Assembly: GCA_004022145.1 (NCBI GenBank)
Contig: RCNU01000014.1
Reading direction: 5' to 3' (one strand)
Source of the DNA: Paecilomyces variotii
Lineage: Eukaryota
Length of the DNA: 64,000 nt
The notes beneath the pieces are model-generated. The model saw only the letters and a program-made list of their open reading frames with translations, did not search any database and had not been told where the DNA came from. The position numbers and the translations under genes are program-made. This document shows positions 1,051-43,233 of this stretch, in pieces (the first letter of the stretch is position 1; every line of letters begins with the position of its first letter).

Positions 1051-4000
1051 TCACTGGCGCGGAGACCTGGAAGAGGCTATCAGCAAATGGGTGTTGATCA
1101 TGGAGCAGGCAGAAAACACTCACGTCGGGTTAAAAGCCGGAGAGGTTGGGCTGTAGCCTGGAGATGTAGGTCCACCAGGAGACGTCGGCGAGCCAGCGAA
1201 GTTGGGAGAGGTAGGAGAGTAAGTCTGAGGACTTGTTGGGGACCAACCAGGCGAAGTAGGTGTGTACTTCGGCGAGGTTGGAGAAGTGGGAGAATGACCA
1301 CGGCCAGTAGCTCCCCCAATGGCAGGGCTGGTGGGGCTGTAGCTTGGGGACGTCGGGCTGAATGCCGGAGAAGCTGGACTGAAGCTTGGCGACGTAGGGC
1401 TGTAGTTGGGCGAGGTGGGAGAAAATCCCGGAGAGGTAGGAGAGTAGGAGGGAGACGTCGGTGACGCTTGGCCGTAGGCTGGCGAGGTAGGAGAATAAGC
1501 TGGCGAGGTCGGCGCGAACGACGGACTGGCCGGCGAGAAACCAGGAGATGTCATGAAACGAGGGCTGGTAATAGCCATGCCAGGAGACGTAGGCGAGTAG
1601 CTCGACGACGGTGAGTACCGCGGAGACGTCGGACTGGTATTGAAGGGGCTGGTCGGAGAATAACCTGGGCTTCTGGGAGCAGGACTGAAGCCACCTTCGA
1701 AACCAGGGCGATAATCCGTGGCGAAACCTCCAGGAGTCTCGGCGCCGGTTTGGCGAATAGGAGAGAACTTGGAGTCGGGATCGGGTGTTCCGATATACAC
1801 ACTCTCCTGCATGGGCGAACCAGTATCGTATTGCGTCGCTGCTCCATCGCTGATGATAGCATCCTTCGCGCCGATAGCACCCATCAGGCCAAATCTCGCG
1901 TTGTTGGAAACGACTGTGTTCAACATGTTCTGATCCAGGTACATGTCGAACTCTCCAGTTCCTGCGGGCGCCATCTGTCCGAGAATCAAGTTCTCAGACA
2001 CACCACGGCAGTCGTCGAGCTCACCGAAAGCGGCAGCGTCCAAGAGGATCTCAACCGTCTCTTCGAACGAACACCTCATCAAGGCACCGTTATCAGCACG
2101 GTTGATACCGTGACGGGTGACAGGAGTGAGATAACCCCTAACCGTCATGACATCGACCAGGAGAGCCAAGTGACGGTGGTTGACATAGGAACCATCGAAC
2201 GCCAACACCTGCGTAAGTTCCCGCAGGACTGCAGTTCGTGCGGCCTCGATGCCGAAGACTTCGAACACCTCGATGAACTGATTGGAGTACGTGCGAGTAG
2301 CATCGACTCCAGGGATAGCCAACACCTCGCCGAGAGAAGAACCACTGGTTTCGAGGACCCATTCCTTGCAAAGAGGGTCTGACTTGCTCTGGAACAATGA
2401 GCCGTCCTCAAGAACGCGCACCTTGTCCTTTTCGTTGATGAAGGCACGCTCGACTCCAGCCACACCACGGAGGGTAAGAGTATCCAACAGATGCTGCTCT
2501 AGCTTCTTGAGCGTAACATCGTATTCCGTGTCATCGTCCTCTTCTTCTTCCTTGTAGTCTTGAACCTGACGAATACGGATAACTTGCTCATCAGCGTTGT
2601 TATCACTGAATATGACTGCAATGTCCTTCGGATAAGCTTCCTTGATTCTCGTCGCAACATCCTGGACTGTAAGACCCTTGTCCAGGAGCTTAGGACGGCT
2701 GAGAATGATACGAAGCAACCATTTGGACTGGCGACTCGAGTCCTCGGTGACATCCTCGGGAATGATGAAGTAAGATTCAACCATATCCCTATCATTCTCA
2801 ATAACCGTAGTCTGGATGTCCGGGTCGTAATAGATCTCGGTAGCCTCCGTGACCGATCGCAAGCTGGTGTGCTCAACGACACTTCGCAACTGCTTCGCGG
2901 ATTCCTTATCGTGAGCCCTTCCAGGTTCTTGGTATACAGTCATCGACGGTGTCTTGATGTTGGTGGCCACGTTCAGAATTTCCTTGAGACGAGGAACACC
3001 CAGTGTGACGTTCTTAGACGACACACCAGCAAAATGGAAGGTGTTCAGTGTCATCTGCGTGGCAGGCTCTCCAATGGACTGGGCTGCCAGGACACCGACC
3101 ATCTCACCCGGGTTCGCAGCTGCTTTAGCGAACCTACTCTCAATGGCACCTAGAACATGCTGGAAGGCCAACTTGTTCATAGAGTATTCTGTAACGAGTC
3201 TCCGGAAGGCAAGACGAGACCGCAACTGCGCCTTGAAGAGGAGAGTAGCACTCTCTTGAGCTTCGCGAGAGATGATATCATCGCCCCGAACGACGACCAA
3301 GCGATCCATGAGGGCTTGGACCTGAGGAATAACCTCGGCTGGATGGAGATCGCTTATAGTGCCTTCCTTGATTCTGAAGGTAGTCTTGGCACCCTCCAGA
3401 ATTCGTTGCACATTGATCGGAAGCTGCATCATCTCCTCATCTCCTTTGGCGACGCTGCGAACAAACTCTCTGTCCTTGAGTAGTCGCTCCCACTCTTCGT
3501 CCAGATAACGCTGGACTTCGATGTCGCCTGCAATCTCCGTTGCCTGTTCTAAAACGTCGGGTCCGAGAGTCATCTCCGGATCCATAAGGTCGACGCGGAA
3601 TCTGCGACGGAACTGCTCATCTGAGCATCTGATGATATCGACGCGCTGGTTCTCAATGTGTGCACCATCCAAGCCATCCTCTCCGTAAAGGAACTGAATG
3701 ACGTCGCCCAGAGAGTTACGAACGGTACCATCGTATTTGACCATCACCTCCTCCAGAGCCTTGACAAGCTTTCGCTGGATATAACCAGTCTCGGCTGTCT
3801 TCACGGCAGTATCAATGAGACCCTCACGACCGGCCATTGCGTGGAAGAAGAATTCCGTTGGAGTCAAGCCACGGAGGTAAGAGTTCTCAACGAAACCACG
3901 GGACTCTGGAGAGTAGTCGTCTTTGGTGAAATGAGGAAGTGTACGGTACTTGAAACCGAAGGGAATACGCTTTCCTTCGACGGACTGCTGCCCGACAACT

Positions 4001-6528
4001 GCGGTCATCTGAGAGATGTTGATTGTGGAACCTTTTGATCCGGAACGAGCCATCTGAATGGCATTGTTCAGATCCTTCAAACTCTTTTCGGTCTCGCTAC
4101 CGGCTTCGTCACGAGCGTTGTTGAGAGCACGCGAGACCTTGCTCTCAAAGGTCTCACGGACATTCATACCTGGCAACGGTTCTAGAGTGTTGTCGGTCGC
4201 ACTAGCGGTGATGGCGTCGACTTCCTCCTTACGCTTGCGAACTGCTTCCTCGATTCTCTGAATAGTAAGCTGATCAGGGATCGTGTCACCAATACCGATA
4301 CTGAATCCGTTGTGAAGAAGCCAGTAATTAACCACTCTCTGAGCACCGTTGAAGAAACCCATGGCTGCCTCATGCCCGTACTCGTTGAAGATGGTGTGGA
4401 TCACACCACCACCACTTGCACCCACAGTCTTCTTCGAGAACATACCGTACATGAGCTGACCGCCATGCACAAGGATACCGCCGTCAGCCAATGGCGAAAA
4501 CTTCTCAGATAGTGGTGCCTTGTCCTTATCAACACGCAAAAGATTCAGACCTGGAGGAAGCACCATACTGATCATCTGCTTTCCGGTCCACCTCGGACGA
4601 GGTTTCAGGATTGCTGGCGGAGGGATCACTCCATCCCAGTCGGGAACCCAGAGCATAATGTTCATGACTTGCTCCTTAGTTAAGAATACATCACGCCGAC
4701 AGATTTTGTAGATACCACAAAGAGTATCCTGGACGATACCCATCAACGGACCGTTACGCTGGGGCGAAACAATATTCAACGGCACCATGCAAAGGTTAGC
4801 AAGCTCTGCACGAGCCTCCTCACTCTGCGGGACGTGCAAGTTCATTTCATCACCGTCGAAATCGGCGTTGTAAGGAGTTGTCACGGACAGGTTGAGTCGG
4901 AAGGTCGAGTATGGCATGACACGGACACGGTGACCCATCATGGACTCCTTGTGCAAAGATGGCTGACGGTTGAAGAGAATGACGTCTCCATCCATGATGT
5001 GTCGCTCAACCTTCCAACCGTAAAGCAGCTGTTGACCACCAGCTCTCCGTGCGTGACGAAGATCGATACGCTCTCCGTTGTCCCTAACAATGTACCTTGC
5101 TCCAGGGTGCTCATTGGGACCATTCGAAACTAGATACTGCAATTTGTCAATATTGTAGGGCGTGACAACTTCAGGGTAGGTCAGCGTCCTCGCGATACTT
5201 CTGGGAACACCAACTTCATCGAGTGACAAGTTGGGATCACCAGTGATGACTGTACGAGCGGAGAAGTCCACACGTTTTCCCATCAAGTTCTGACGGAGAC
5301 GACCTTCCTTTCCCTTTAGACGGCCACGGATGGCCTTCACAGGTCTGTTCGATTTCTGCATAGCCTTAGGTTGGCCTGCAATATCATTGTCCATGTATGT
5401 CGCCACATGGTATTGCAAGAGGGACTCAAACTCGCGGACAACATGCTCTGGGGAGCCCTCCTGTTCGCAACGCTGCACGTTCTGGTTGGCACGGACTATT
5501 TCTGCCAGCTTGTACGTCAGATCATCTTCACCACGCTGGCCTGTACCACTACCACCAACCAGGACACTGGGTCGCACTGGAGGAGGAGGCACGGGAAGGA
5601 CGGTGATGATCATCCATTCAGGGCGGGCGTAGTCGTTACTCAAGCCCATGATGCGGACATCCTCATGAGAAATGCTGCGGAAGATGTTCAAAGCCATCAA
5701 GGGAGTAATCTGCTTCTTCTCTGGCTGCTGCATGTCTCCCTCCTCGATCATGTTCTTGTTCGGCTTCCACGTTCCCATCAGGCTGATACCCTCTCGTCGA
5801 ATCGTAGGCTGGGCATTTCCACATCCGCCATGTGTCCGCAAAGGCTTCGAACCTTCTTTCGAGAAGGGCTCATCTTCGTCAGGAGGAGGATCGGCCTCGC
5901 AAACCAGGACGTCCTTGGACAGTCGCCAGATCTGATCGAAACGTCTCTTAGGGTCGCGCGTGCGCACGGCTTCGAGAAACTTGGGATCGGACTGAGATTA
6001 TCAAATGTCAGCAAATACTGCCATACTATGATTTGCCATCCCGTGAGGGATGACTAACCGTATTGGCCTTGATCTTTCCACAGTTGTGGCAGACAGTTTC
6101 CAGCAGCTTTTTGATCTTCGTCAAGAAACCTAGAGACAGATAATTAGCGGACTGATTTTTACTGAGCTAGCATATTCACATACCGATGTGAAAAACGGGA
6201 GTTGCAAGTTCGATATGACCGAAATGTCCAGGGCACTCTTTCTGGCCCTCTTCGCAGGTCTCACAAGTCCACTGGCGATCAATTGTACCAAGTCGAGGAT
6301 CATTCAAACCTTTCGTTCGCGGTCGTTGTCGTTGTTCATCCTTTACGTAGCCACGTCAGCTTCGTACCTCAAAACTCACCAGACCAGGGGAACACCAACC
6401 ATAGTCTCAGGATATTCCACATGGACGACACTCATCCGTTTGATCTCATCCGGCGAGAGGAGACCAAACTGGATCTCCTTGATCGTGCGCAACGGCGCCT
6501 TGGAGTATGGGAAGTAGACGTTGGACAT
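1051..6528 (-). CDS. rpb1: DNA-directed RNA polymerase II largest subunit
   Basis: Exons 6528-6400, 6340-6184, 6129-6059, 5991-1124, 1066-1051 with canonical GT..AG introns. N-terminal Zn site [12 protein letters not shown], catalytic NADFDGD, trigger loop [12 protein letters not shown]-terminal YSPTSP heptads. Confidence 0.99.
1054..1662 (-). repeat. RPB1 CTD heptad repeat array (degenerate)
   Basis: About 20 YSPTSPx/FSPASPx/WSPTSPx units with spacer insertions in the translated exon. Confidence 0.95.
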
Positions 6529-20651: not shown

Positions 20652-20761
20652 GCCGAGCCTGAGTTCTCTAGCAACTAGCTCAGCCTATTTATCTCCGTGG
20701 GTGGAGCTGGAAGGCGTGGGAGAAATCCGACAGGAGGTCTGCCTGTAGGCAGGCTCCGACA
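20652..20761. repeat. Dispersed ~110-bp repeat, copy 1
   Basis: Shares TCTAGCAACTAGCTCAGCCTATTTATC, AAGGCGTGGGAGAAA and TCTGCCTGTAGGCAG with 36211-36325 in the same orientation. Confidence 0.85.
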
Positions 20762-23703: not shown

Positions 23704-24416
23704 CAGAGCGGGCCCAGGATAGCTGGAGAGGTGAGCTGTCGCCAGAGAGCAGTTGAGCACGCAGTCAATCTAGATATTGGGCATAGATAAACGGAGAATC
23801 AGAGGACATTTGACAGTCCAGCACAGCAGCAGATGGGGCAATCACATCACTACCTGGAAAGGGAAAAGATGATGCTCGAGATGGCCGTCGCTGACGCCGG
23901 GAGGTCACCTGCGAGATGCCAAGACCGGCGATATGCTGATTGGCTGAACAGAGAGACGGCGCCCGCGGAGCCGGAAGAGCCGCACGTCACGAGGACGCTA
24001 GTCTTAACGCAGTCTAGCGCGGCCGTACCTGAGGTAACCGTTGCTATGGCAGGACAGACGCTTAGGCCGGACAGGCAGTATATTTACGGCCTCCATTTCT
24101 ATATCTCCAGCTCTTTTTCCCTTCTTCCTCATCCACGCATCCCTTTTCGCCTCTCTATTTCCTACTTTTACATGTTCTAAGTCTCTATTTGCTTCGTGCT
24201 TGCATCCTATTGATGATCTTGTACAGACAATAGCTGTCTTCGTCAATTCTTCGCTGCTACCAGCTTTCCGAGCTGCAACCTCTTCACAGCCATATCAGCG
24301 CAGTGTCCTGGCGATAGCTGCTCGATAGGCCGTGACAGTTGTTGGAGAGAAGCCTATATATCTTCAGCAGAACAAAAAAAAAATCAGATTCAAGAAAAAA
24401 AAAATAAACCGTCACA

Positions 24417-26357
24417 ATGGCCACCGCAACCGTGACGACGCCCATCAAGAGCCACCGCGGGATCTTTAACACAAAGACGGCTGGCGGTCGACTGCCTCTC
24501 ACCCCGTCTCCTCGAACTCGCACAAACAGTGTGACCAACGTGTCCAGCAGCGAGTCTCCTTTTACCCCTCCAAAGCACGCAGACGGCGAGCGCCCTGCCA
24601 AGGGTTCCAAATCGGTCTATGGAGGTAACCTGTCATCCCACTTCAGCAAGTCTTTGTCAAAGACCACCCGCTCGCACAGAGACTCTCCCAAGTCCAACAT
24701 TGCCAGGATCCGCAAGTCTCCAAAGCACCTGGAGCTGGGCGTCTCAGACTGGACCTTGACTGGAACGGGTCCGAGCAGATCCACACCATCGAAGGAGCGA
24801 ACAAGGGAAAGGGTGACAAAGGAGAGAGCTGCAAAGGAGAAGGTCTCGAAAGAAAAGGTACCAAAAGAGAAAGCTTCTCGAGAGAAGGTTGCAACAACTC
24901 GTACCACTCGATCAACGAAAACAACTGTTCGCATTCCTCACAATGCCGGCGACCGCTTCATCCCTAACCGCATGGCAAGCGAGGGCCTGGCTACGGCTGG
25001 TACCGCAAAGCCAGAAGAGAACTCTCGCCCGAAGACTAGCGGCAGTGAGGGCTCCGCGGTTCTGGCAAACGCTGCCAGTGCATTCGACATCGGTGGTCGC
25101 GGCTCTGAGGAGGATCTCACTGCTGCACTGGAGAACCTAGGTCTGGAGGACAACGAGCCGTCCAGCAACTACTCTCGCCCGGCCCCTGATGCTGTCGCAT
25201 ATGAGTCCTCCCTAGCCAACGCTTGTGGCGTGAATCTAAACACCCGTATTCTTGCCTTCAAGCCTCCGCCCCCGGAGTCTTCTAAGCCCATTGACCTGCG
25301 CGCGCAATACAACCGTCCCCTGAAGCCCGCCGGAGCTCAGTCGGCTCAGTTCCGACGCCGTGTCCAGACGGCACCAGAGCGTGTCCTGGATGCTCCAGGT
25401 ATGCTGGATGACTACTACCTGAACTTGCTTGACTGGGGCTCTGGCAACCAGGTTGCTATCGGGCTCGAACGAAATGTCTACGTCTGGTCTGCTGACACCG
25501 GCACGGTCAACTGCCTCCTGGAGACCTCTCCCGACACCTACGTCAGCAGTGTCAAGTGGAGCGGAGACGGAGCATACGTTGGTGTTGGACTGGGTACTGG
25601 GGAAGTCCAGATCTGGGATGTGGAAGAAGGAACCAAGCTTCGCAGCATGTTCGGTCATGACTCCCGCGTCGGTGTCATGGGCTGGTCCAAACACACTCTG
25701 TCGACTGGCGCCCGCAGTGGACTCGTTTTCAACCACGATGTCCGCATCGCCGACCACAAGGTCGCTGAACTCGTTTCTCACACCTCCGAAGTCTGCGGTC
25801 TGGAATGGCGATCCGACGGTGCCCAGCTGGCGACCGGGGGCAACGACAACCTGGTCAACATCTGGGACTCTCGATCCCTGAGCGCTCCCAAATTCACCAA
25901 GACCAACCACCGTGCTGCTGTTAAGGCGCTCAGTTGGTGCCCCTGGCAATTGAACCTCCTGGCCACGGGTGGAGGTTCTTATGACCGTCACATCCACTTC
26001 TGGAACACCACAACCGGCGCTCGTACCAACAGCATCGACACCGGCTCGCAAGTCACCAGTCTGCGGTGGAGCAACCATTACCGGGAGATCGTCAGCTCGA
26101 GTGGATTCCCCGACAACTCGCTCAGCATCTGGAGTTACCCTACTCTGGTCCGCAACGTGGAGATCCCCGCCCATGAGACCCGTGTGTTGCACAGCTGCCT
26201 CAGCCCAGACGGCCAGATGCTGGCCACTGCGGCTGCAGACGAGAGCCTCAAGTTCTGGAAGATCTTCGAGCGCAAGCCTGGCACCAGCGCTGCGGCCTCT
26301 CGCGAGGGCGGTGTAGGCAGCAAGGCTCAGATGGCTAAGTCCATGACCATCCGATGA
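24417..26357 (+). CDS. cdc20: APC/C co-activator Cdc20 (Slp1/fizzy)
   Basis: Intronless. C-box DRFIPNR, RILAF Mad2-interaction-like motif, VLDAPGMLDDYYLNLLDW, WD40 propeller, terminal IR tail. Confidence 0.96.
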   Translation: MATATVTTPIKSHRGIFNTKTAGGRLPLTPSPRTRTNSVTNVSSSESPFTPPKHADGERPAKGSKSVYGGNLSSHFSKSLSKTTRSHRDSPKSNIARIRKSPKHLELGVSDWTLTGTGPSRSTPSKERTRERVTKERAAKEKVSKEKVPKEKASREKVATTRTTRSTKTTVRIPHNAGDRFIPNRMASEGLATAGTAKPEENSRPKTSGSEGSAVLANAASAFDIGGRGSEEDLTAALENLGLEDNEPSSNYSRPAPDAVAYESSLANACGVNLNTRILAFKPPPPESSKPIDLRAQYNRPLKPAGAQSAQFRRRVQTAPERVLDAPGMLDDYYLNLLDWGSGNQVAIGLERNVYVWSADTGTVNCLLETSPDTYVSSVKWSGDGAYVGVGLGTGEVQIWDVEEGTKLRSMFGHDSRVGVMGWSKHTLSTGARSGLVFNHDVRIADHKVAELVSHTSEVCGLEWRSDGAQLATGGNDNLVNIWDSRSLSAPKFTKTNHRAAVKALSWCPWQLNLLATGGGSYDRHIHFWNTTTGARTNSIDTGSQVTSLRWSNHYREIVSSSGFPDNSLSIWSYPTLVRNVEIPAHETRVLHSCLSPDGQMLATAAADESLKFWKIFERKPGTSAAASREGGVGSKAQMAKSMTIR

Positions 26358-27403: not shown

Positions 27404-29338
27404 ATGTCGAACCAGCAGGTGGTGAGTGCTTGTCGAGCGGCCCTGCCTTGCCTGTTTCCGCATGAGGCGTCATCCCTTGTCATTGTCTCCTCCATCCTGG
27501 CCCTTTCCCCCTATCGCGCGATGATGAAGACTTGAGGCTTATCTGAAAATGATCCACAGGGCATGGTCTTTGACCGTGTCATCCAAGAAGTCTGCGAAGC
27601 CTCTCGGGTTGACTTTGAGGAGAGCGGTGTTGACCAGCAGACGTTGGAAGAGCTGAGAAAGGTGAGTTGCGAGCGTTGCTGTTAGTTAGTCCTTTCCTTT
27701 GTGCTTGTCTATCGACTCATGTATCCCTGCATCGCGCTGTCAGTCGCTCGATGTTTTCCCATCGAGATGAGGGCAGCCAGAGAGCAGTCTGCCATCGCCG
27801 TCGTCGCCCGCTGAGGCTGAGGCAGAACCGGGCACGATCGCCCTTTCTCAAGTCTGCTCGGGTGGCCAAAGCGGGGTTCGCAAGGTTTGGGGGAAGGCGC
27901 GATCCTTATGGGGAGCCGTCGGGCTTTTGAGTCGTTTTTATACCCACGCACAAAGCACAAACTTATGCGCCCGCCCGCCTTTCTCCGCCCGGCCACCCTG
28001 CGCCAATCAGCTGTCGCGAGTCACTGCGAGTCACTGCTCGTGGCACGCACTGCGTTGGCTTTCTCTGTATACGATACATCGATCTATCTTATATGTCTAT
28101 CTTTGTATATTGGCTGCTTGTTTTCATTCATTCATTCATTCATTCATTGCTGATCCGCTGACTCTCAACCCGCTCCACAGAGCTGGCAGCAAAAGCTCTC
28201 GTCCCTGGGTGTTGCACACTTCCCATGGGACCCTCCGCCACAGCCAGCACCGCAACCGCAGAACCCCATCCTCCCTCCTACCGCGACCGTTCCCTCCAAT
28301 GCCCCCAAACCACCCTCAACCCAACAGCCGCAAGCACCTCAACAGCAGATTCCTCAGTCACATCCGGGCGTGACACCCTCTCTACAGGCGCCTGTTCCTG
28401 GCCAGCTTCCTGTTTCGGGGCCCCCTTCCAATGCCAATGGACAGCCCCGCATCAAGACGGAGCCCGGGCTCAACGGTCCGATGAACCAGATGCCCCAGGC
28501 TCCCTCGAACCCCCAGTCCGCGCGCGAACGTGCGGCCAACATGCTTCAACAGCGATATGGTCCTGCAGCCACGACCTCGATCAGCCAGCTGCAGGCACAA
28601 TCGCAGGCCGCCTTGTCGCTCCCAGGACAGCCGCGTCCAGCTAATCCTCAGATGCCTAATGGCCAGGGGCAAGATATCAAGCCTCAGCAGTACCAGAATG
28701 TCAATCAGCCACAGAGCACCCCTGTTGGCAATGCACAGACAGACGGCGCGAGCGATGGCCTTATGGAGTGGAAGGCCGAGGTGGCTCGACGGCGGGAGGC
28801 TGCAGCACGTCAGAACGGCGAAGGTGATCGTCTGCTGCGCGAGCAGTTGAGGTTGCAGGCTCTGTCGTTAGAGGGTGGTGGTCTCATGCTTCCCCTAGAT
28901 GAGCAGGACTTGTCATCCAAGATAGCCAAGCGTCGTGTTCTCTCTCACTCCATGAGGTCTACCTCTGAGGACATTGTTCCCGGAGCTACTCCAACTATGG
29001 CGCCGTCCATCTCCAGTCTACCACGTCCTCAGTACGATGGACCGGATGACGATGACAAGGTCGAGGATGACGAAGACGCCATCAACTCTGACCTGGACGA
29101 CCCCGATGATCTCATCGCCGAAGAGCATGAGGGAGAGGATGCTGTCGGTCAGGTCATGCTCTGCACATATGATAAAGTGCAAAGGGTCAAGAACAAGTGG
29201 AAGTGTACTCTGAAGGATGGAATCCTGACCACCGGCGGAAAAGAGTGAGTATCCCCATGCTATTTTACTCTGTATGTATCCCTACTGACGGCTTTCAGGT
29301 ATGTCTTCCACAAAGGCCAAGGCGAATTCGAGTGGTAA
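27404..29338 (+). CDS. toa1: Transcription initiation factor TFIIA large (alpha/beta) subunit
   Basis: Exons 27404-27421, 27560-27661, 28181-29244, 29299-29338. Motifs DFEESGVDQQTLEELRKSWQQKL, DAINSDLDDPDD, MLCTYDKVQRVKNKWKCTLKDG, GEFEW*. Confidence 0.95.
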
Positions 29339-31400: not shown

Positions 31401-31863
31401 ATCGGGACAAGATCTCACCCGCGAATGAATGCTCCTGATGCCCTGTTTTGCAGTCAACGATGCGCAAGGCCTTAGCCGCTTATGATAAATCAGTGCGGAA
31501 TCCGCCCGAGGATTGGTCCTGTATATATTCTAGCGTCGGGCAACATGGGAGATCGCTCTGGGAGAGCATTTCCGATGGTCGGAGTGTGTTGGCTTCGCAT
31601 ATATCGCTAGGGGGCGGGTGTTTTGAAACTTCAAGCGTCTACGGGTTTTCTTGACTCGTGATACTCAGGGCCCTGAAACGATATCGGAGATTTTCTAGGA
31701 TATAATCTCAAACACAGGGTCTGAGAAACGTTACCAAAACGATCTAGAAACTTTTTCTTTGTTTCTGGTGTGTTTCTACCCCTCCGTTTTATAGATCCCG
31801 CTCATTAACTATATGTTCTTTCCACTGCTAATATCGATTATCTAGCTTGGCCTTTAGATCATC

Positions 31864-33471
31864 ATGGCTGCCATCGAAGTGATGGACTCAGACGGAATCC
31901 AAGAATGGGAGAAAGAGGAGAAGAAGAAGCAAGAAGACGTCGATCCAGAAGCACTCACCAAGACCCTTACGGAGCAATCGCACGTCGTGCGCCCCAAATC
32001 TCTCCCGAAGGAGATCCTCTTCGTCAGTGTCGTTTGTGCTGCTCAGTTCATGACCCAGGCTGGCTTAGCACAGTCCATTGCGCCGCTACATGTCATAGGC
32101 GCAAGTTTCGGAACCACGAGCGAAAATGATCTCAGTTGGTGTGCGGCAGCATATAGTTTGACCATCGGCACATTCATCCTCGTTGCGGGACGATTGGGCG
32201 ACGTATATGGGCATAAGTTGATGTTCACTATCGGATTTGTATGGTTTGGCCTCTGGTCTCTTATCGCAGGCTTCAGTGTCTGGTCGAACCAGATCTTCTT
32301 CGATGTGTGTCGCGCCCTCCAGGGAATAGGGCCCGCATTGTTGCTCCCCAACGCGGTTGCTATCTTTGGGAGAGCATACGAGCCAGGTCCGCGCAAAGAT
32401 ATGGTGTTTAGCCTCTTTGGCGCGACTGCTCCAGGTGGCTTCGTCGTTGGATCAACCTTTTCGACGATCTTTGCGCAGTTGGTGTGGTGGCCCTGGGCTT
32501 ACTGGGTCATGGGCATCGTGTGTTTCTGCTTCGCAGTCCTGGGCGTCCTGGTCATTCCAAGAACACCATCTCCCAAGTTCAATGATGGTCTCAGCACCTT
32601 TGTCCGACTCGATGTCCTCGGTGCCAGCGCAGGAATCTCTGCCCTCGTGCTGATCAATTTCGCGTGGAATCAGGGCCCCGTAGTCGGCTGGCAGGTGCCC
32701 TACAACTATATCCTGCTCATCGTCGGGTTCCTCTTCCTAGCTGTCTTCTTCCTTATCGAGCGCAAGGCAACTTGTCCGCTACTCCCCTGGTCTGTCTTTA
32801 CAGGCGACGTCGGTTGGGTGCTGGGATGTATAGCCGCTGGATGGTCTAGTTTCGGAACCGCCATATTCTACTTTTACCAGTTCATGGAAGTCATCAAGGG
32901 AGACACTGGACTGCTTGTCAGTGCAAAATGGTGTCCAGCGGCTATCTCGGGAGCCGTTGCAGCCGTAACTACTGGTTTCCTGCTCAGCCGTGTCCCACCA
33001 AGTGTCATTATGTTCTGTGCCATGTGTGCCTTCACAACAGGGCTGGCATTGCTGGCTACTCTACCGCCGGATCAGATATATTGGGCGCAGGCTTTTGTGA
33101 TGTCTATCGTCATATGTTGGGGGATGTGAGTCCATCTTCAAATTATCTCCTTTTGAAATGCAGTAGCACTAACGCAACGCCGTAGGGATATGTCTTTCCC
33201 ATCTGGGACCGTTATCCTCAGTAACTCTATGCATCATCAACACCAGGGTCTAGCAGGCTCACTAGTCAACACTGTGGTGAATTACTCCATTTCTATAGGC
33301 CTTGGCTTTGCAGGAACGGTAGAATCCCAAGTGAACGACGGCGGTAAGGATCGTCTGAAGGGAATACGCGGAGCATCATATATGGGACTTGGATTTGCTG
33401 GTCTTGGGCTTATCCTGTCGGTATGTTTTATGATCGAGACATGGTGGAGATCGAGACACAGGAAACTATAG
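31864..33471 (+). CDS. MFS drug:H+ antiporter (DHA2, Atr1-like)
   Basis: Exons 31864-33125 and 33186-33471. Motif A GRLGDVYGHK, RALQGIGPA, and MDMSFPSGTVILSN...QGLAGSLVNTVVNYSISIGLG; many TM helices. Confidence 0.92.
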
Positions 33472-33992: not shown

Positions 33993-34925
33993 ATGATATA
34001 TCCACATTTCCCTGACGGTATCTTGCTTAAGAAGCATGTCGGTAGGATAATACGTGTCCAAGGTGTCCAATATCAGTTGGAACGTTTAATGGCCGAGAAG
34101 TACGACCATCATCTTGTTCAACGAGTTGCCCTCTTCGAGGCCAAGAAATCCGATACCCAAGAGACTGCGGTTGTCAAGTTTCGCTTTCAGTGAGTTCTGC
34201 CTTCCACAACATTGATCGATAATTTTTCATTAACCACGCGTTATATGTCCAATATTCAACCAGCCCATACAGACCATAGAATGTGTGTCTTCTGATGTGG
34301 TATTGCTAACTCATCATACTTGAAGAATGGATCCTGATGCGATTCTTGAAACTGATCGGGAGGCTGTACTAATCATGGCGTTGAACTGGTTCAGAGCAGA
34401 GGCCGGATGCCTTCAAGCTTGCGAAACTAGAGACCACAGAACACCAAAGTTCTATGGAAAAGAAGAACTTGTTCAGGGCAGTCAAGACCTGTACCCTGGA
34501 GGCTACATGCATGTTATCGCAATGTCAAAGGTCCCTGGAAGCCCAGTTACTACATTCTCAAGATTCACTCGGAGAGAGATCGAGACCATTCGCAAGCAAC
34601 TTGCTGAAATACTTGAGTAAACATCCTTCACCAGATACAACTTTTTTTTACAACCACTAATGCCTGCATGAAGATATACGCGACAGAAAGGATGCCACTA
34701 CATCCTCCCGAACAAAGAAGACTTATTTTTTGACCGGACCTCTATGCACACGTATGTTCGAGCTTATCAATATTTATACAAGACCTGCTAACATTTATAC
34801 AAAGTGCCCTCGTTGGATTTGCTGGCCTTGCCCTGGATGACAACAGTAATATCGATCCGATAACAGAGAGCTCATTTGAAGTCACGGCTTTTGGGTTGGA
34901 ATCATTGCCACATGGTAGGAGATAG
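33993..34925 (+). CDS. Fungal protein-kinase-like fold protein, probably a pseudokinase
   Basis: Exons 33993-34189, 34326-34616, 34674-34751, 34805-34925 splice in frame. It has AVVKFR (beta3 Lys), a helix-C Glu (FRAEAGCL), TPKFYG and YPGGYMHVIAMSKVPG. The catalytic-loop and DFG positions read HYILPNKEDLFFD and LVGFAG. Confidence 0.65.
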
Positions 34926-35044
34926 ATGCGAAACAGCCAAGCCATTAGGATTATTCTATTCAGGATAGGTGGATCTACCACAAGAGCAACGGCCCATGAG
35001 AAATTTGTGCTTGCACTCTTCAAATGAGTCTACGAATCTTAGGT

Positions 35045-35947
35045 CTATCCACTATAAGACTCACTGGTCAGGGAAATTCCTGTCTCGGAAAAAATGACGG
35101 GAGACTGGGCTGTCCATGTTCCCATAGTCTGGAAGTAGTTGTAAGTTTCCTGATAGTTATGCAACAGTGTGTGTGACTGACAAGTAGTTCACCAACTCTC
35201 CTTGTGGATTGCCAGCTGTTTCCGGCTGCGATGGTTGCTATGAAAAATAGGCATTCTTTCAGGCTTACGTCCTCAAAACGAGGGGTCAATATGGTTCGGT
35301 GATAAACCACCGGTGACACTTGGAAGGTGAAAGTATGGCTCCGCTTAAGAAAGACTGTCTGTTGGTAGGTCGTGAAAAACCCATATGCGGTTTCGTAGTC
35401 ATCCATATATCTCGCAAGTTGTCCTGTCCCGCAAATTAATTTTTAGCTATGAAGTGTGTTCGAGATAATAATCCTTACCAAGTAGGCGAGCAAACTCTGC
35501 CTTCTTCATTTTCTTGAGATCCGTTGTCCAGTATGTCTTTACCTCCCCGACCACGCGAATCTCTCCTGGGTTACCATAACATTGGATTGTGACATCCGGT
35601 ACAGGCCCGGGATCATCACCAAGAGTACATGTTCCTGCCTGAGGGTCACCGAAAGCCAGATTCATGCTGCGTAGAGTCACAGACAGAGCTTCCGATATAT
35701 GCTGGACTAAGCGGCTGAATTCACCGTTCTCATTGCCAACGATGTACTGCTCCGATTGAACAGTTGGAGGAAGCGCCCGAGGAATGCCGTAATGCTGAAC
35801 AGATTGTTGTCTCACTAGGTGATAGAAGTCTCTCCATGGGGATATTTGATCAGTCGAGAGATAATATGGTTCGCGTGACGGTCCCGTTCCAAAGCCGGGC
35901 CGTTTTTTTAGGTCCGGCAATGCAGACCAGATCTCTGCTCCTGCCAT
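35045..35947 (-). CDS. PD-(D/E)XK restriction-endonuclease-fold protein
   Basis: Exons 35947-35479, 35423-35182, 35128-35045. Motifs VPDVTI...VVGEVKTYW, then GQLARYM (QxxxY), YGFFTTYQQTVFLK and VSLKECL. Confidence 0.7.
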
Positions 35948-36210: not shown

Positions 36211-36325
36211 GCTGAACTTGGATTCATCTAGCAACTAGCTCAGCCTATTTATCCCTGTAGATGGAGGAGCTAGAAAGGCGTGGGAGAAACCCGACAGCAG
36301 ATCTGCCTGTAGGCAGATCCCGACA
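36211..36325. repeat. Dispersed ~110-bp repeat, copy 2
   Basis: Matches 20652-20761, differing mostly by transitions. Contains the palindrome GATCTGCCT-GT-AGGCAGATC (36300-36319). Confidence 0.85.

Positions 36326-36888: not shown

Positions 36889-36952
<64 letters not shown>
36889..36952 (+). repeat. Poly(A) homopolymer, 64 nt
   Basis: Directly visible in the sequence. Confidence 0.98.
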
Positions 36953-37012: not shown

Positions 37013-38115
37013 TCAGGCGAGATAGTCGTCACCGGGATCGCAACTCCAATGACATGTGGGCAGTGAGCAATTAATGGGCATACTCACATATTCGCCACGC
37101 CAACACTTCTTGATTATTGTTTCAAAGGGAATATCTTTAACATGTGGGAACGAGTCCGGTCCAGGACAACAGAGGTCATGGTCCTCAGAACCGAAGAAAT
37201 AGTACTTATGGACATGAAAGGATGCAATAGAGTAGAGGATCCAACCGAAATGTAGTATCTCAACATGAACGTCCAAGCCCTTTTTGTTTGCAGGAGTCAT
37301 GTCAATATCAAGTGGTAATAGAATGGACTGCCCAAAATATGCAACTTTAAGCTGCTCACCCAGGATCAAGATATTGCGAAGAACAATATCATCCACAAAT
37401 ATCTTGCGAGAGTGGACATGAGCAAAGTCTCAATAATACTTGACATGCATTTTATTTTCAAGGAATCCTTGCGCTCCGGATGGGTTTCAAGCTAGGACTC
37501 AAGATCTCCTTCTGCACTGGCTCTCAATCCCATACTGGGACGTTTGAAAGTAAGGAATAATCCTTTTATTGCTGTCCAGGCTTTCAAAGACTTGGATCCC
37601 GTTCTCCAAGGTTTGCCGACTTATTTGGCTCGTATATGCCAGATCGTCGAGGTCTTTGATCTGCCCAGGTTGATATTGCTTAGGACTCAAGATCTCCTTC
37701 TGCACTGGCTCTCAATCCCATACTGGGACGTTTGAAAGTAAGGAATAATCCTTTTATTGCTGTCCAGGCTTTCAAAGACTTGGATCCCGTTCTCCAAGGT
37801 TTGCCGACTTATTTGGCTCGTATATGCCAGATCGTCGAGGTCTTTGATCTGCCCAGGTTGATATTGCTTAGCTTGTTTAACACCCTTGCCTTCTCCCATA
37901 TCAAGAACAACCCCAGTCATGCTACACCTAATTTCTGGGAGATTGCGACTAGGATCGTTGGGGGATGGAGATGGTTTAGTATTGCGAGAGTGTCCAGGCT
38001 TGTCCGTTTGAGCATTCAGAGAAGATCCGCGTCTCGTTTCAATTGTTTGAAGGGGTTGATCTTCAGGATTATCAAAGCTGTAAATTTCCGATAATCTAAA
38101 GGAGTAATTTAGCAA
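37013..38115 (-). pseudogene. Protein kinase pseudogene
   Basis: Kinase fragments across frames: CSMTGVVLDMG, EGDLES*LE (in-frame TAG), AHVHSRKIFVDDIVLRNILI, LKVAYFGQS, IIKKCWRGEY. It has several frameshifts plus an internal 188-bp duplication. Confidence 0.8.
37493..37868. repeat. Tandem duplication, 2 x 188 bp
   Basis: 37493-37680 and 37681-37868 read identically by eye; TAG microhomology at the junction. Confidence 0.95.
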
Positions 38116-38453
38116 TAGAAGATAAAGAGAACTTCATCAAGCTAACCTTTGACTCGTCCAACTCCCGGGGTGCATAAGGAAAAGAGATATCACAGAGCTA
38201 GCTGTGAATTTTAGAGAGTACCATGATTGTTGCAGGTAAGCGTAGAAGAAGGTGTCCACAAAAAATGATAAACAGCTCGGGACAGAGATACTCATGGTAC
38301 ATCTCTCAATATTTCATAATGTCTCGGCCCCGCTGATGGCTTGATAAACAACACTGTCCCTAGATCAAGATCCGGTAATTTCACTCCTATCTTCTCTCAA
38401 GAGAGCGGATAGGGGTGATAAAAACACTTAGATTAAAGCTCAAACTGCACAGA

Positions 38454-41731: not shown

Positions 41732-42778
41732 TCAAAAATTTCCTATCTCTGCTGATGGCCGGGTACTGTTGAGTGGGCGAGAGGCTAAAATCGGAAGCGA
41801 GGAGATCGACAGAAGTGACTCAACATCCGTACTACCATTTGCCGCAAGAGTACCGGTATCATCCTTTTTCCACTGGAGCTGATACACGCGTTCTGCCATT
41901 CCGGTGGCATGGACTATCCGTGCAATGATGGCATGAGTCTCAAGAAGTATTGGGTCCGGAACCGCATACGGTGTGTTGTGGTTCTCGAACTTCACTTTCT
42001 CGATGCCTCGTACTAGAAAGGTTTGCGCTTGGCGTGGCTTGTAATTCTTGAGTGTGTACACATCCTGCTGATTGGTAGCTTCCAAAGCAATGGTAAATCG
42101 ACCAAACATCGGGTGTAGGGCCAGAGCCAGCGTCATTGCGTTTCGAGGCTCGTTTATTGACTGCTGAGTAAAACCGATTCGTTGGCTCAATGATGGAAAG
42201 AAATGGTTCAGGTTAACCCATATTTGCGCCTTAACATGTTGTTGGGATTCTGATTGCCAGTGTCCCAACGAAAAAGGGATGATGTGGGCACACTCGGTCA
42301 CAATGACCATATCATCACCGGTGGGAGCGGCCTTATCGTCCATCAAACCTGTAAGAACACATCTGTTGCCGTCCCGTTCCAAACAGACTCTTCTGAGCCA
42401 TCTCTGTTCATTTCGCGAGGAGGGTTCGACAATCGCACCCTCAAATCCGAGACGTGGGGAGGGGGTAATCGTTGCGGGCGTTTTAGAACGCGTCAGCATT
42501 GGGAGTAGTACACCTTGGGAGAGCGAGCGTGCCAACTGATATATCTCATTATCGTCGTTGCATCGCTTGATGTCCTTTAGCAAGAGATCAAGCCCATCGT
42601 TGGGCAGGTTGTCGAGAAATGCTCTCAGTATCAGAGTCGTATCATCATTCTCGTCTTTCGCCGTGTAGTGTTCGAGCCTATACATACATTCTTGCTCGAT
42701 GATCCTCGAATCTTCTGAGCCGATAACACTGATCTCTCCGCTGCAAGGAGAGAGGGCATCCTGATCTTGGGGTTCCAT
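41732..42778 (-). CDS. HNH endonuclease domain protein (fungal HNH_2 type)
   Basis: Intronless; likely start MEPQDQ at 42778. Motifs CLERDGNRCVLTG, ECAHIIPFSL, INEPRNAMTL...HPMFGRF, PDPILLETHAIIARIVHATG. Confidence 0.85.
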   Translation of the reverse strand: MEPQDQDALSPCSGEISVIGSEDSRIIEQECMYRLEHYTAKDENDDTTLILRAFLDNLPNDGLDLLLKDIKRCNDDNEIYQLARSLSQGVLLPMLTRSKTPATITPSPRLGFEGAIVEPSSRNEQRWLRRVCLERDGNRCVLTGLMDDKAAPTGDDMVIVTECAHIIPFSLGHWQSESQQHVKAQIWVNLNHFFPSLSQRIGFTQQSINEPRNAMTLALALHPMFGRFTIALEATNQQDVYTLKNYKPRQAQTFLVRGIEKVKFENHNTPYAVPDPILLETHAIIARIVHATGMAERVYQLQWKKDDTGTLAANGSTDVESLLSISSLPILASRPLNSTRPSAEIGNF

Positions 42779-43233
42779 CTTCCGTTGCTCATGTATGTCT
42801 CGAAAAGTTGAGGAATGGCACAAACTCCGTCGGGAGTTCTACACTGGTTTTGACTTAATCCTCAGTCAGAAGCGTAGGAGCAAGTCAGATGAAGGATGAG
42901 AGAGAGCCAAACAAGAGAATGGACAGAGACAGGAGAGGATATAAGGAGGAAAGTGAGTGAAAGACACAATGGGAATGGATGCTACTAAACTACTTAGGGA
43001 AGCGACGTACCGCGCCGTACAGAGAGAGCTCCGGGTCTACCTACGTATATCCATGACACAGGCATCTTCTTTCTTTCTAGGTTAGACTATTTAGTCCTAT
43101 AGGTATTTACACTAGCTTAGAAAGATAAACAAAACAACTTCCGCTATGTAAATAGAGAATGCTCTATATACATAATTTTGGACATACAATTTCAGACAAA
43201 GTAAGAGAAAAGAAATAAGACGACCAACAGGAT

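Follow-up and report, generated by a model that had tools for sequence, protein, structure and literature searches.

Two convergent genes with closely spaced stops lie in a 64,000-nt stretch of the Paecilomyces variotii genome (contig RCNU01000014.1 of assembly GCA_004022145.1), which we analysed in full and call the window. We refer to the plus-strand member of the pair as gene A and to the minus-strand member as gene B (Table 1). A first-pass annotation made from the letters alone had proposed that the two form a split toxin/antidote or drive module in which a pseudokinase, the product of A, neutralises or regulates a stand-alone PD-(D/E)XK nuclease, the product of B. Here we describe what each gene encodes and weigh whether the two are likely to work as a pair.

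Gene A is interrupted by three introns of 136, 57 and 53 nt, all bounded by GT..AG and carrying branch sites CTAAC or CTAAT, and its frame has the top codon-usage score of the six possible frames. Residues 5-228 of the spliced product align with the 228-residue protein P0002, with 130 of 225 positions identical (58%), a single gap and an E-value of 2e-100; this end-to-end alignment indicates that A is intact and that the splice model is correct. The annotation had described two intact, spliced, convergent genes, and this held up: on the plus strand P0002 confirms A, and on the minus strand B has an intact spliced frame. Using tblastn with both spliced proteins, we found no paralogue of either in the window.

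An exhaustive phmmer search with the 96 residues of exon 2 of A, run against 1,835,955,588 representative proteins, returned 42 proteins at E<=1e-3, of which nine reached E<=1e-10 and two E<=1e-30. Many of these matches are exon-size open reading frame (ORF) fragments, and the full-length members have 203-236 residues, with one of 348. Relatives of A in this set are P0002, P0014, P0017, P0019, P0024, P0026, P0027, P0038 and P0040. We built an alignment, A1, of 38 rows, in which 34 of the 42 matches stand beside translations of the window's four exons of A; it leaves out the short fragments P0023, P0033, P0035, P0039, P0041 and P0042 as well as P0031 and P0037, long proteins with unrelated bacterial-type domains whose similarity to A we judged spurious. 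The family has conserved blocks of its own, PGGY..VI.MS.VPG, F(F/Y)DR and a C-terminal PIT..S..V.AFG, and none of the 12 members scanned matched Pfam at E<=0.1.

We examined the fold of the family on P0002, using A1 as input to AlphaFold2 (AF2). The resulting model has a mean predicted local distance difference test score (pLDDT) of 92.5 and a predicted template modelling score (pTM) of 0.87, and Foldseek returned at least 500 matches to it in the PDB at E<=0.001. The top match was AAK1 (7rj6_A; E 2.6e-9, probability 1.00, TMq 0.60 over 206 columns, 15% identity), followed by GAK, BIKE, YabT, PknB, CK2 and others, all of them protein kinases among the matches listed. Foldseek had been put forward in the annotation as a check on the pseudokinase gene, and through this homologue it revealed a kinase fold. 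A profile search of the PDB with A1 by sequence alone gave a best E-value of 0.021 (MELK), below significance. P0002 also matched the PADLOC model REase_III (E 0.0068, 12.5 bits), which we treated as noise because the matched region is the kinase N-lobe.

The nearest solved structures, the NAK kinases (AAK1, GAK, BIKE) and bacterial PknB and YabT, have the bilobal kinase fold in common with the A family at E-values of 2.6e-9 to 1e-6, TMq 0.5-0.63 and probability 1.00 over 178-212 aligned columns, and with a sequence identity of only 10-16%. Unlike these kinases, the A family lacks the Gly-loop, the HRD motif, the catalytic Asn and the DFG Asp, and does not match a Pfam kinase model. DSSP assignment of the P0002 model places only about 35 residues beyond the DFG-equivalent strand, which we read as a C-lobe truncated so that the activation segment and helices alphaF-alphaI are missing. 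Based on this structural model, the gene A family is a truncated protein-kinase fold made up of the N-lobe and the first half of the C-lobe.

The protein encoded by gene A carries both Lys62 and Glu91, the Lys-Glu pair of a kinase N-lobe, and the pair is widely kept: in A1, K occupies the beta3 Lys position in 14 of 15 rows, and E is found at the alphaC Glu position in 33 of 34. The rest of the catalytic site is degenerate. With the register to canonical kinase motifs inferred from the DSSP strands and the motifs themselves, the DFG Asp position in A is a Gly, the first of a VGFAG motif; of the 14 A1 rows in this column, 10 have Gly and one has Asp. The columns in register with the HRD Asp (three E, two F, two D and others among 12) and with the catalytic Asn (H3 K3 Q3 S2 I1 D1 of 13) are unconserved, and a scan of the whole A protein found no HxD, no GxGxxG and no DFG, DLG, DYG or DFE. 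The missing Gly-loop, HxD, catalytic Asn and DFG Asp mark A as a pseudokinase. A kinase fold lacking HxD and DFG, as the annotation had it, is thus confirmed for A, and as judged from the alignment it is the whole family, not just this member, that is without kinase catalytic machinery.

Gene B begins with an ATG at 35947 and contains a 55-nt GT..AG intron at 35478-35424. Its 3' end can be read in two ways, and no homologue that we found covers this part: with a 53-nt intron at 35181-35129 the frame stops at 35047-35045 and encodes 264 residues, and with no second intron it stops at 35070-35068 and encodes 274. The separation of 119 bp between the two stops given by the annotation therefore stands if the second intron is used and grows to 142 nt otherwise. 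The frame of B has the best of the six codon scores, though a weak one (0.026 bits per codon). The sole relative of B found, P0043, is a 166-residue protein, 91% identical, from a cluster of four sequences; it is an unspliced ORF that covers exon 1 of B and runs into the same intron. Word-index searches with exon 1 returned nothing among longer proteins and only P0043 among proteins of similar length, and exon 2 had no match among longer proteins; these searches rely on shared 5-residue words, and distant relatives could escape them. Scanning bacterial and archaeal genome contigs with B produced 68 pattern matches, none of which was confirmed.

B contains, in this order, P117-D118, E135-x-K137 and Q158-x3-Y162, all of them invariant in P0043. 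The claim of a complete PD...ExK plus QxxxY nuclease signature is borne out to the extent that these motifs are present and conserved; the profile libraries recognise no nuclease family in the protein. The pattern PD-x(8-30)-[DE]xK-x(5-80)-QxxxY occurred in 139 of 20000 shuffles of B (0.7%) and in one of the 66 stop-to-stop ORFs of at least 130 residues in the window, an ORF that is presumably not B because the motif of B spans two exons. The motif is thus rarer than chance would give but not rare, and as a sequence signature it is suggestive, short of decisive. Searches of the ESM Atlas with B led to unnamed Ascomycota clusters at 0.95 (109 and 164 residues) and 0.85 (256 and 336 residues). 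The nearest Pfam-bearing cluster (341 residues, score 0.82) has PF27653 SPOK2_N on 76% of its members, and six of the ten best family-bearing matches share one family or clan. This pointer to SPOK is a weak language-model lead (0.82). We consider it roughly an even bet, or slightly better, that B has a PD-(D/E)XK core resembling SPOK domain 2.

The SPOK meiotic-drive proteins are among the closest known parallels. Spok1-4 of Podospora are grouped in InterPro IPR052396 (PMC12693581). In SPOK3 the PD-(D/E)XK motif occupies residues 219-240 and QxxxY residues 294-298; the K240A mutant loses killing and keeps resistance, and D667A, a change in the catalytic loop of the kinase, gives a toxic protein that wild type rescues (PMC6660238). 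The nuclease kills and the kinase protects, in cis as well as in trans (PMC6660238, PMC12693581), a SPOK3 protein lacking everything beyond residue 490 shows strong toxicity in yeast (PMC12693581), and Spok1 D680A causes DNA damage in E. coli and yeast (PMC9972908). The annotation had noted that restriction endonuclease (REase) and kinase domains are fused in SPOK, the former needed for killing and the latter for resistance, and the K240A and D667A data agree with it (PMC6660238). Between the two domains lies a Cys cluster, C-x3-C-x13-C-x5-H-x7-H (PMC6660238).

The A/B locus is like SPOK in placing a PD-(D/E)XK plus QxxxY signature beside a small kinase-fold unit. In other respects the two differ. 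SPOK combines in a single chain of over 700 residues a coiled coil, domain 1, the nuclease, the Cys cluster and an active kinase, whereas A and B are two genes on opposite strands encoding 228 and about 264 residues. QxxxY follows the Lys by 21 residues in B and by about 54 in SPOK3, and a pattern scan, including a relaxed form, found the SPOK Cys cluster in neither A nor B. SPOK resistance needs the catalytic Asp (PMC6660238), which A does not have. As for sequence homology with SPOK, the Atlas lead is the only pointer to it.

We consider it about 50% probable that A and B are two independent accessory genes, one encoding a minimal pseudokinase and the other probably a SPOK-domain-2-like protein. 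They would then be separate, intact, lineage-restricted genes that became chance neighbours in a GC-poor, repeat-bearing, gene-poor patch. A keeps the Lys-Glu pair, but its Gly-loop, catalytic loop and DFG Asp are gone, a loss that rules out canonical phosphorylation by A; most likely it would work through binding, whether as scaffold, decoy or sensor of a ligand. B would be a fast-evolving protein of about 264 residues whose order of motifs and pattern of hydrophobic strands agree with a stand-alone PD-(D/E)XK nuclease core like SPOK domain 2. If that core is correct, nucleic acid would be cut or bound by B, and Asp118, Glu135 and Lys137 would form its predicted metal and catalytic triad.

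Several points weigh against this reading. Its first half takes the independence of A and B as a default assumption, and the adjacency of the two genes seems to echo the fused REase and kinase toxins SPOK (PMC6660238) and Crinkler (PMC5289972), which makes pure coincidence less comfortable. Its second half meets a series of negative searches with single B exons: Pfam gave no match at E<=10 (the release may predate PF27653), PADLOC and NCBIfam gave none at E<=1, and no nuclease was matched among PDB sequences at E<=10. The AF2 prediction for exon 1 alone, made from a two-row alignment, has a pLDDT of 35.6 and a pTM of 0.26, and the Atlas recognition value for B, 1925, falls below the level at which scores carry weight. 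A designed armadillo repeat did match B (E 2.1e-5 for the whole sequence); we discounted it as compositional, as no single stretch passes.

The strongest competitor, which we regard as unlikely though a serious alternative, takes up this second half and holds that B is not a nuclease at all, its motif having come about by chance in an orphan gene, young or quickly evolving, that has some other fold. The missing profile and PDB matches, the unfolded exon 1 model and the low recognition value all point this way, as do the frequency of the pattern in shuffles, its occurrence in another ORF of the window and the single close relative. The order of elements in B, a beta-hairpin with Lys followed by a helix and a strand, resembles a kinase N-lobe as well. 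Against a chance match stand the conservation of all motif residues in P0043, the SPOK2_N assignment of the closest Pfam-bearing Atlas cluster and a D-to-K spacing of 19 residues in B versus 21 in SPOK3 (219 to 240; PMC6660238).

A module of the kind the annotation envisaged, with the two genes serving as toxin and antidote (or in drive, allorecognition or defence) and, more specifically, with A neutralising a SPOK-type nuclease B by binding and not by phosphorylation, appears improbable. Its appeal lies in the tight, convergent arrangement, with 119-142 nt between the stops, and in codon usage that sets both genes apart from their neighbours: the GC content at third codon positions (GC3) is 0.46 in A and 0.47 in B compared to 0.52-0.67 in ten neighbouring genes. 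The weak Atlas lead from B to SPOK2_N adds to this, as does the REase and kinase precedent in SPOK, including the toxicity of SPOK3 truncated after residue 490 (PMC6660238, PMC12693581). However, SPOK protection requires the catalytic Asp, the D667A protein being toxic (PMC6660238), and the A family is without the catalytic loop and the DFG Asp. Members of the A family are stand-alone proteins and B has one near-identical relative only by word searches, a contrast in family size that is weak because the search methods differ. The SPOK Cys cluster is in neither protein. In compact fungal genomes it is common for neighbouring genes to converge with little space between their 3' ends, which also counts against a SPOK-like mechanism. 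An antidote that acts by binding would be compatible with all of these points. Since A is without the catalytic Asp on which resistance in SPOK depends, the toxin/antidote interpretation is mechanistically strained and stays a guess with long odds. Marginally less probable still is its most specific form, a split SPOK-like locus in which a killer B would be restrained by stoichiometric binding of A, possibly as an ascomycete drive or addiction element; such a locus would be a pseudokinase-based, two-gene counterpart of the fused REase and kinase conflict systems.

A wreck of a single SPOK-like gene, its kinase half inverted and then decayed to a pseudokinase, is very improbable. On geometry alone, a nuclease-kinase gene on the minus strand would end up with convergent stops if its 3' half were inverted, and the SPOK kinase domain is small as well (about residues 490-700; PMC6660238). 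But the Cys cluster is missing, both reading frames are intact, and A belongs to a conserved stand-alone family and has a start of its own, three introns and ends that match, which makes it no local remnant of a broken fusion.

Two further systems share features with the locus. Crinkler-type effectors, also named by the annotation as carriers of REase and kinase combinations, do contain them: such fusions form roughly a sixth of the C-termini of Crinklers (Zhang et al. 2016, summarised in PMC5289972), with an REase-fold toxin domain tied to a kinase thought to regulate it (PMC5289972). Crinklers, however, are fused and secreted, with an N-terminal header or Ubl domain, whereas A and B are separate genes, and the kinase of the Crinkler CRN8 is active, unlike A. 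A motif scan found in A and B no hydrophobic N-terminus and no header motif of the LFLAK or HVLV type, which we take to be the Crinkler header motifs. The nuclease domain of HsdR, from type I restriction, is a PD-(D/E)XK domain with QxxxY (PMC6660238), the same motifs in the same order as in B; HsdR also has helicase motor domains, absent at the A/B locus, and B gave no nuclease match in the profile and PDB sequence searches.

The firm gain from this work is the gene A family itself, about 225 residues long, without a Pfam model, confidently folded and found in ascomycetes. Irrespective of what gene B proves to be, it may merit being described as a new family of pseudokinases. B, a near-orphan with a nuclease-like motif, is a reasonable candidate for a toxicity test. 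A targeted literature search found no published account of a two-gene module that pairs a nuclease with a pseudokinase. Should A and B prove to work together, the REase and kinase conflict architecture could split into two genes, and protection would be possible without kinase catalysis, which would bear on how SPOK resistance works.

Table 1. Coordinates of the genes, motifs and neighbouring features, numbered from the first letter of the window
Feature	Position	Strand	Basis or remark
Gene A, minimal pseudokinase, 4 exons, 228 residues	33993-34925	+	Spliced model and P0002 alignment
Gene A exons	33993-34189, 34326-34616, 34674-34751, 34805-34925	+	Stop TAG at 34923-34925
Lys62 codon (beta3 Lys equivalent, retained)	34176-34178	+	P0002 alignment and A1
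Degenerate catalytic-loop and DFG-equivalent region of A	34700-34841	+	Residues ~172-196, across intron 3
Gap between A and B stops	34926-35044		119 nt (142 nt without the last intron of B)
Gene B, ~264 residues	35947-35045	-	Exon 1 35947-35479, exon 2 from 35423
PD of B (residues 117-118)	35599-35594	-	Gene B sequence
E-x-K of B (residues 135-137)	35545-35537	-	Gene B sequence
QxxxY of B (residues 158-162)	35421-35407	-	Start of gene B exon 2
Dispersed repeat, ~100 nt	36227-36325; other copy 20667-20761		88-90% identity
MFS (major facilitator superfamily) transporter genes flanking the A/B patch	31858-33471 and ~39.9-41.2 kb		
RPB1	1120-5997	-	ORF scan against Pfam
CDC20	24408-26357	+	ORF scan against Pfam
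TFIIA	28154-29248	+	ORF scan against Pfam
Phosphofructokinase	57.5-60 kb	-	ORF scan against Pfam

The surroundings of the pair are those of a typical fungal chromosome segment, with housekeeping genes populating the window in an ORF scan against Pfam. Within it, the GC content falls to 0.37-0.47 at 33-40 kb, compared to 0.47-0.59 at 21-33 kb and a window-wide value of 0.493. The AT-rich patch of the annotation is therefore real as a reduction in GC, of moderate degree only. GC is lowest at 36.0-37.0 kb (0.34-0.40), where the TpA/ApT ratio is about 1.1 versus 0.70 window-wide. The dispersed repeat beside the genes is present too, in two copies; the nearer one sits 280 nt upstream of the ATG of gene B. 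The copies contain a short internal palindrome (CTGCCTGTAGGCAG core) and have unrelated flanks, and the repeat could represent a miniature element or else a solo fragment. Rfam, at its gathering threshold, gave no match anywhere in the window, the repeat included.

At the end of the most GC-poor stretch lies a 64-nt poly(A) run on the plus strand (36889-36952), the sole homopolymer of at least 15 nt in the window, perhaps the tail left by an element that was retroposed or has degraded. Just beyond it is a second kinase-like gene (37013-38133, minus strand), broken by a perfect tandem duplication of 188 nt (37493-37868, the copies 100% identical). Its 138-residue ORF at 37013-37429 has a weak match to the Pkinase catalytic loop (E 0.16) and differs in frame from an upstream ORF of 148 residues; removing one copy of the duplication puts the two in the same frame. 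The duplication is either a recent disrupting event or an assembly artefact. With the broken kinase-like gene, the poly(A) run, the repeat and the low GC, the patch appears fast-changing and gene-poor, a setting compatible with two lineage-restricted genes that are adjacent yet not partners. A second nuclease-type gene lies about 6 kb from the A/B pair, an ORF of 368 residues (41732-42838, minus strand) with an HNH_2 endonuclease domain (E 2.2e-10).

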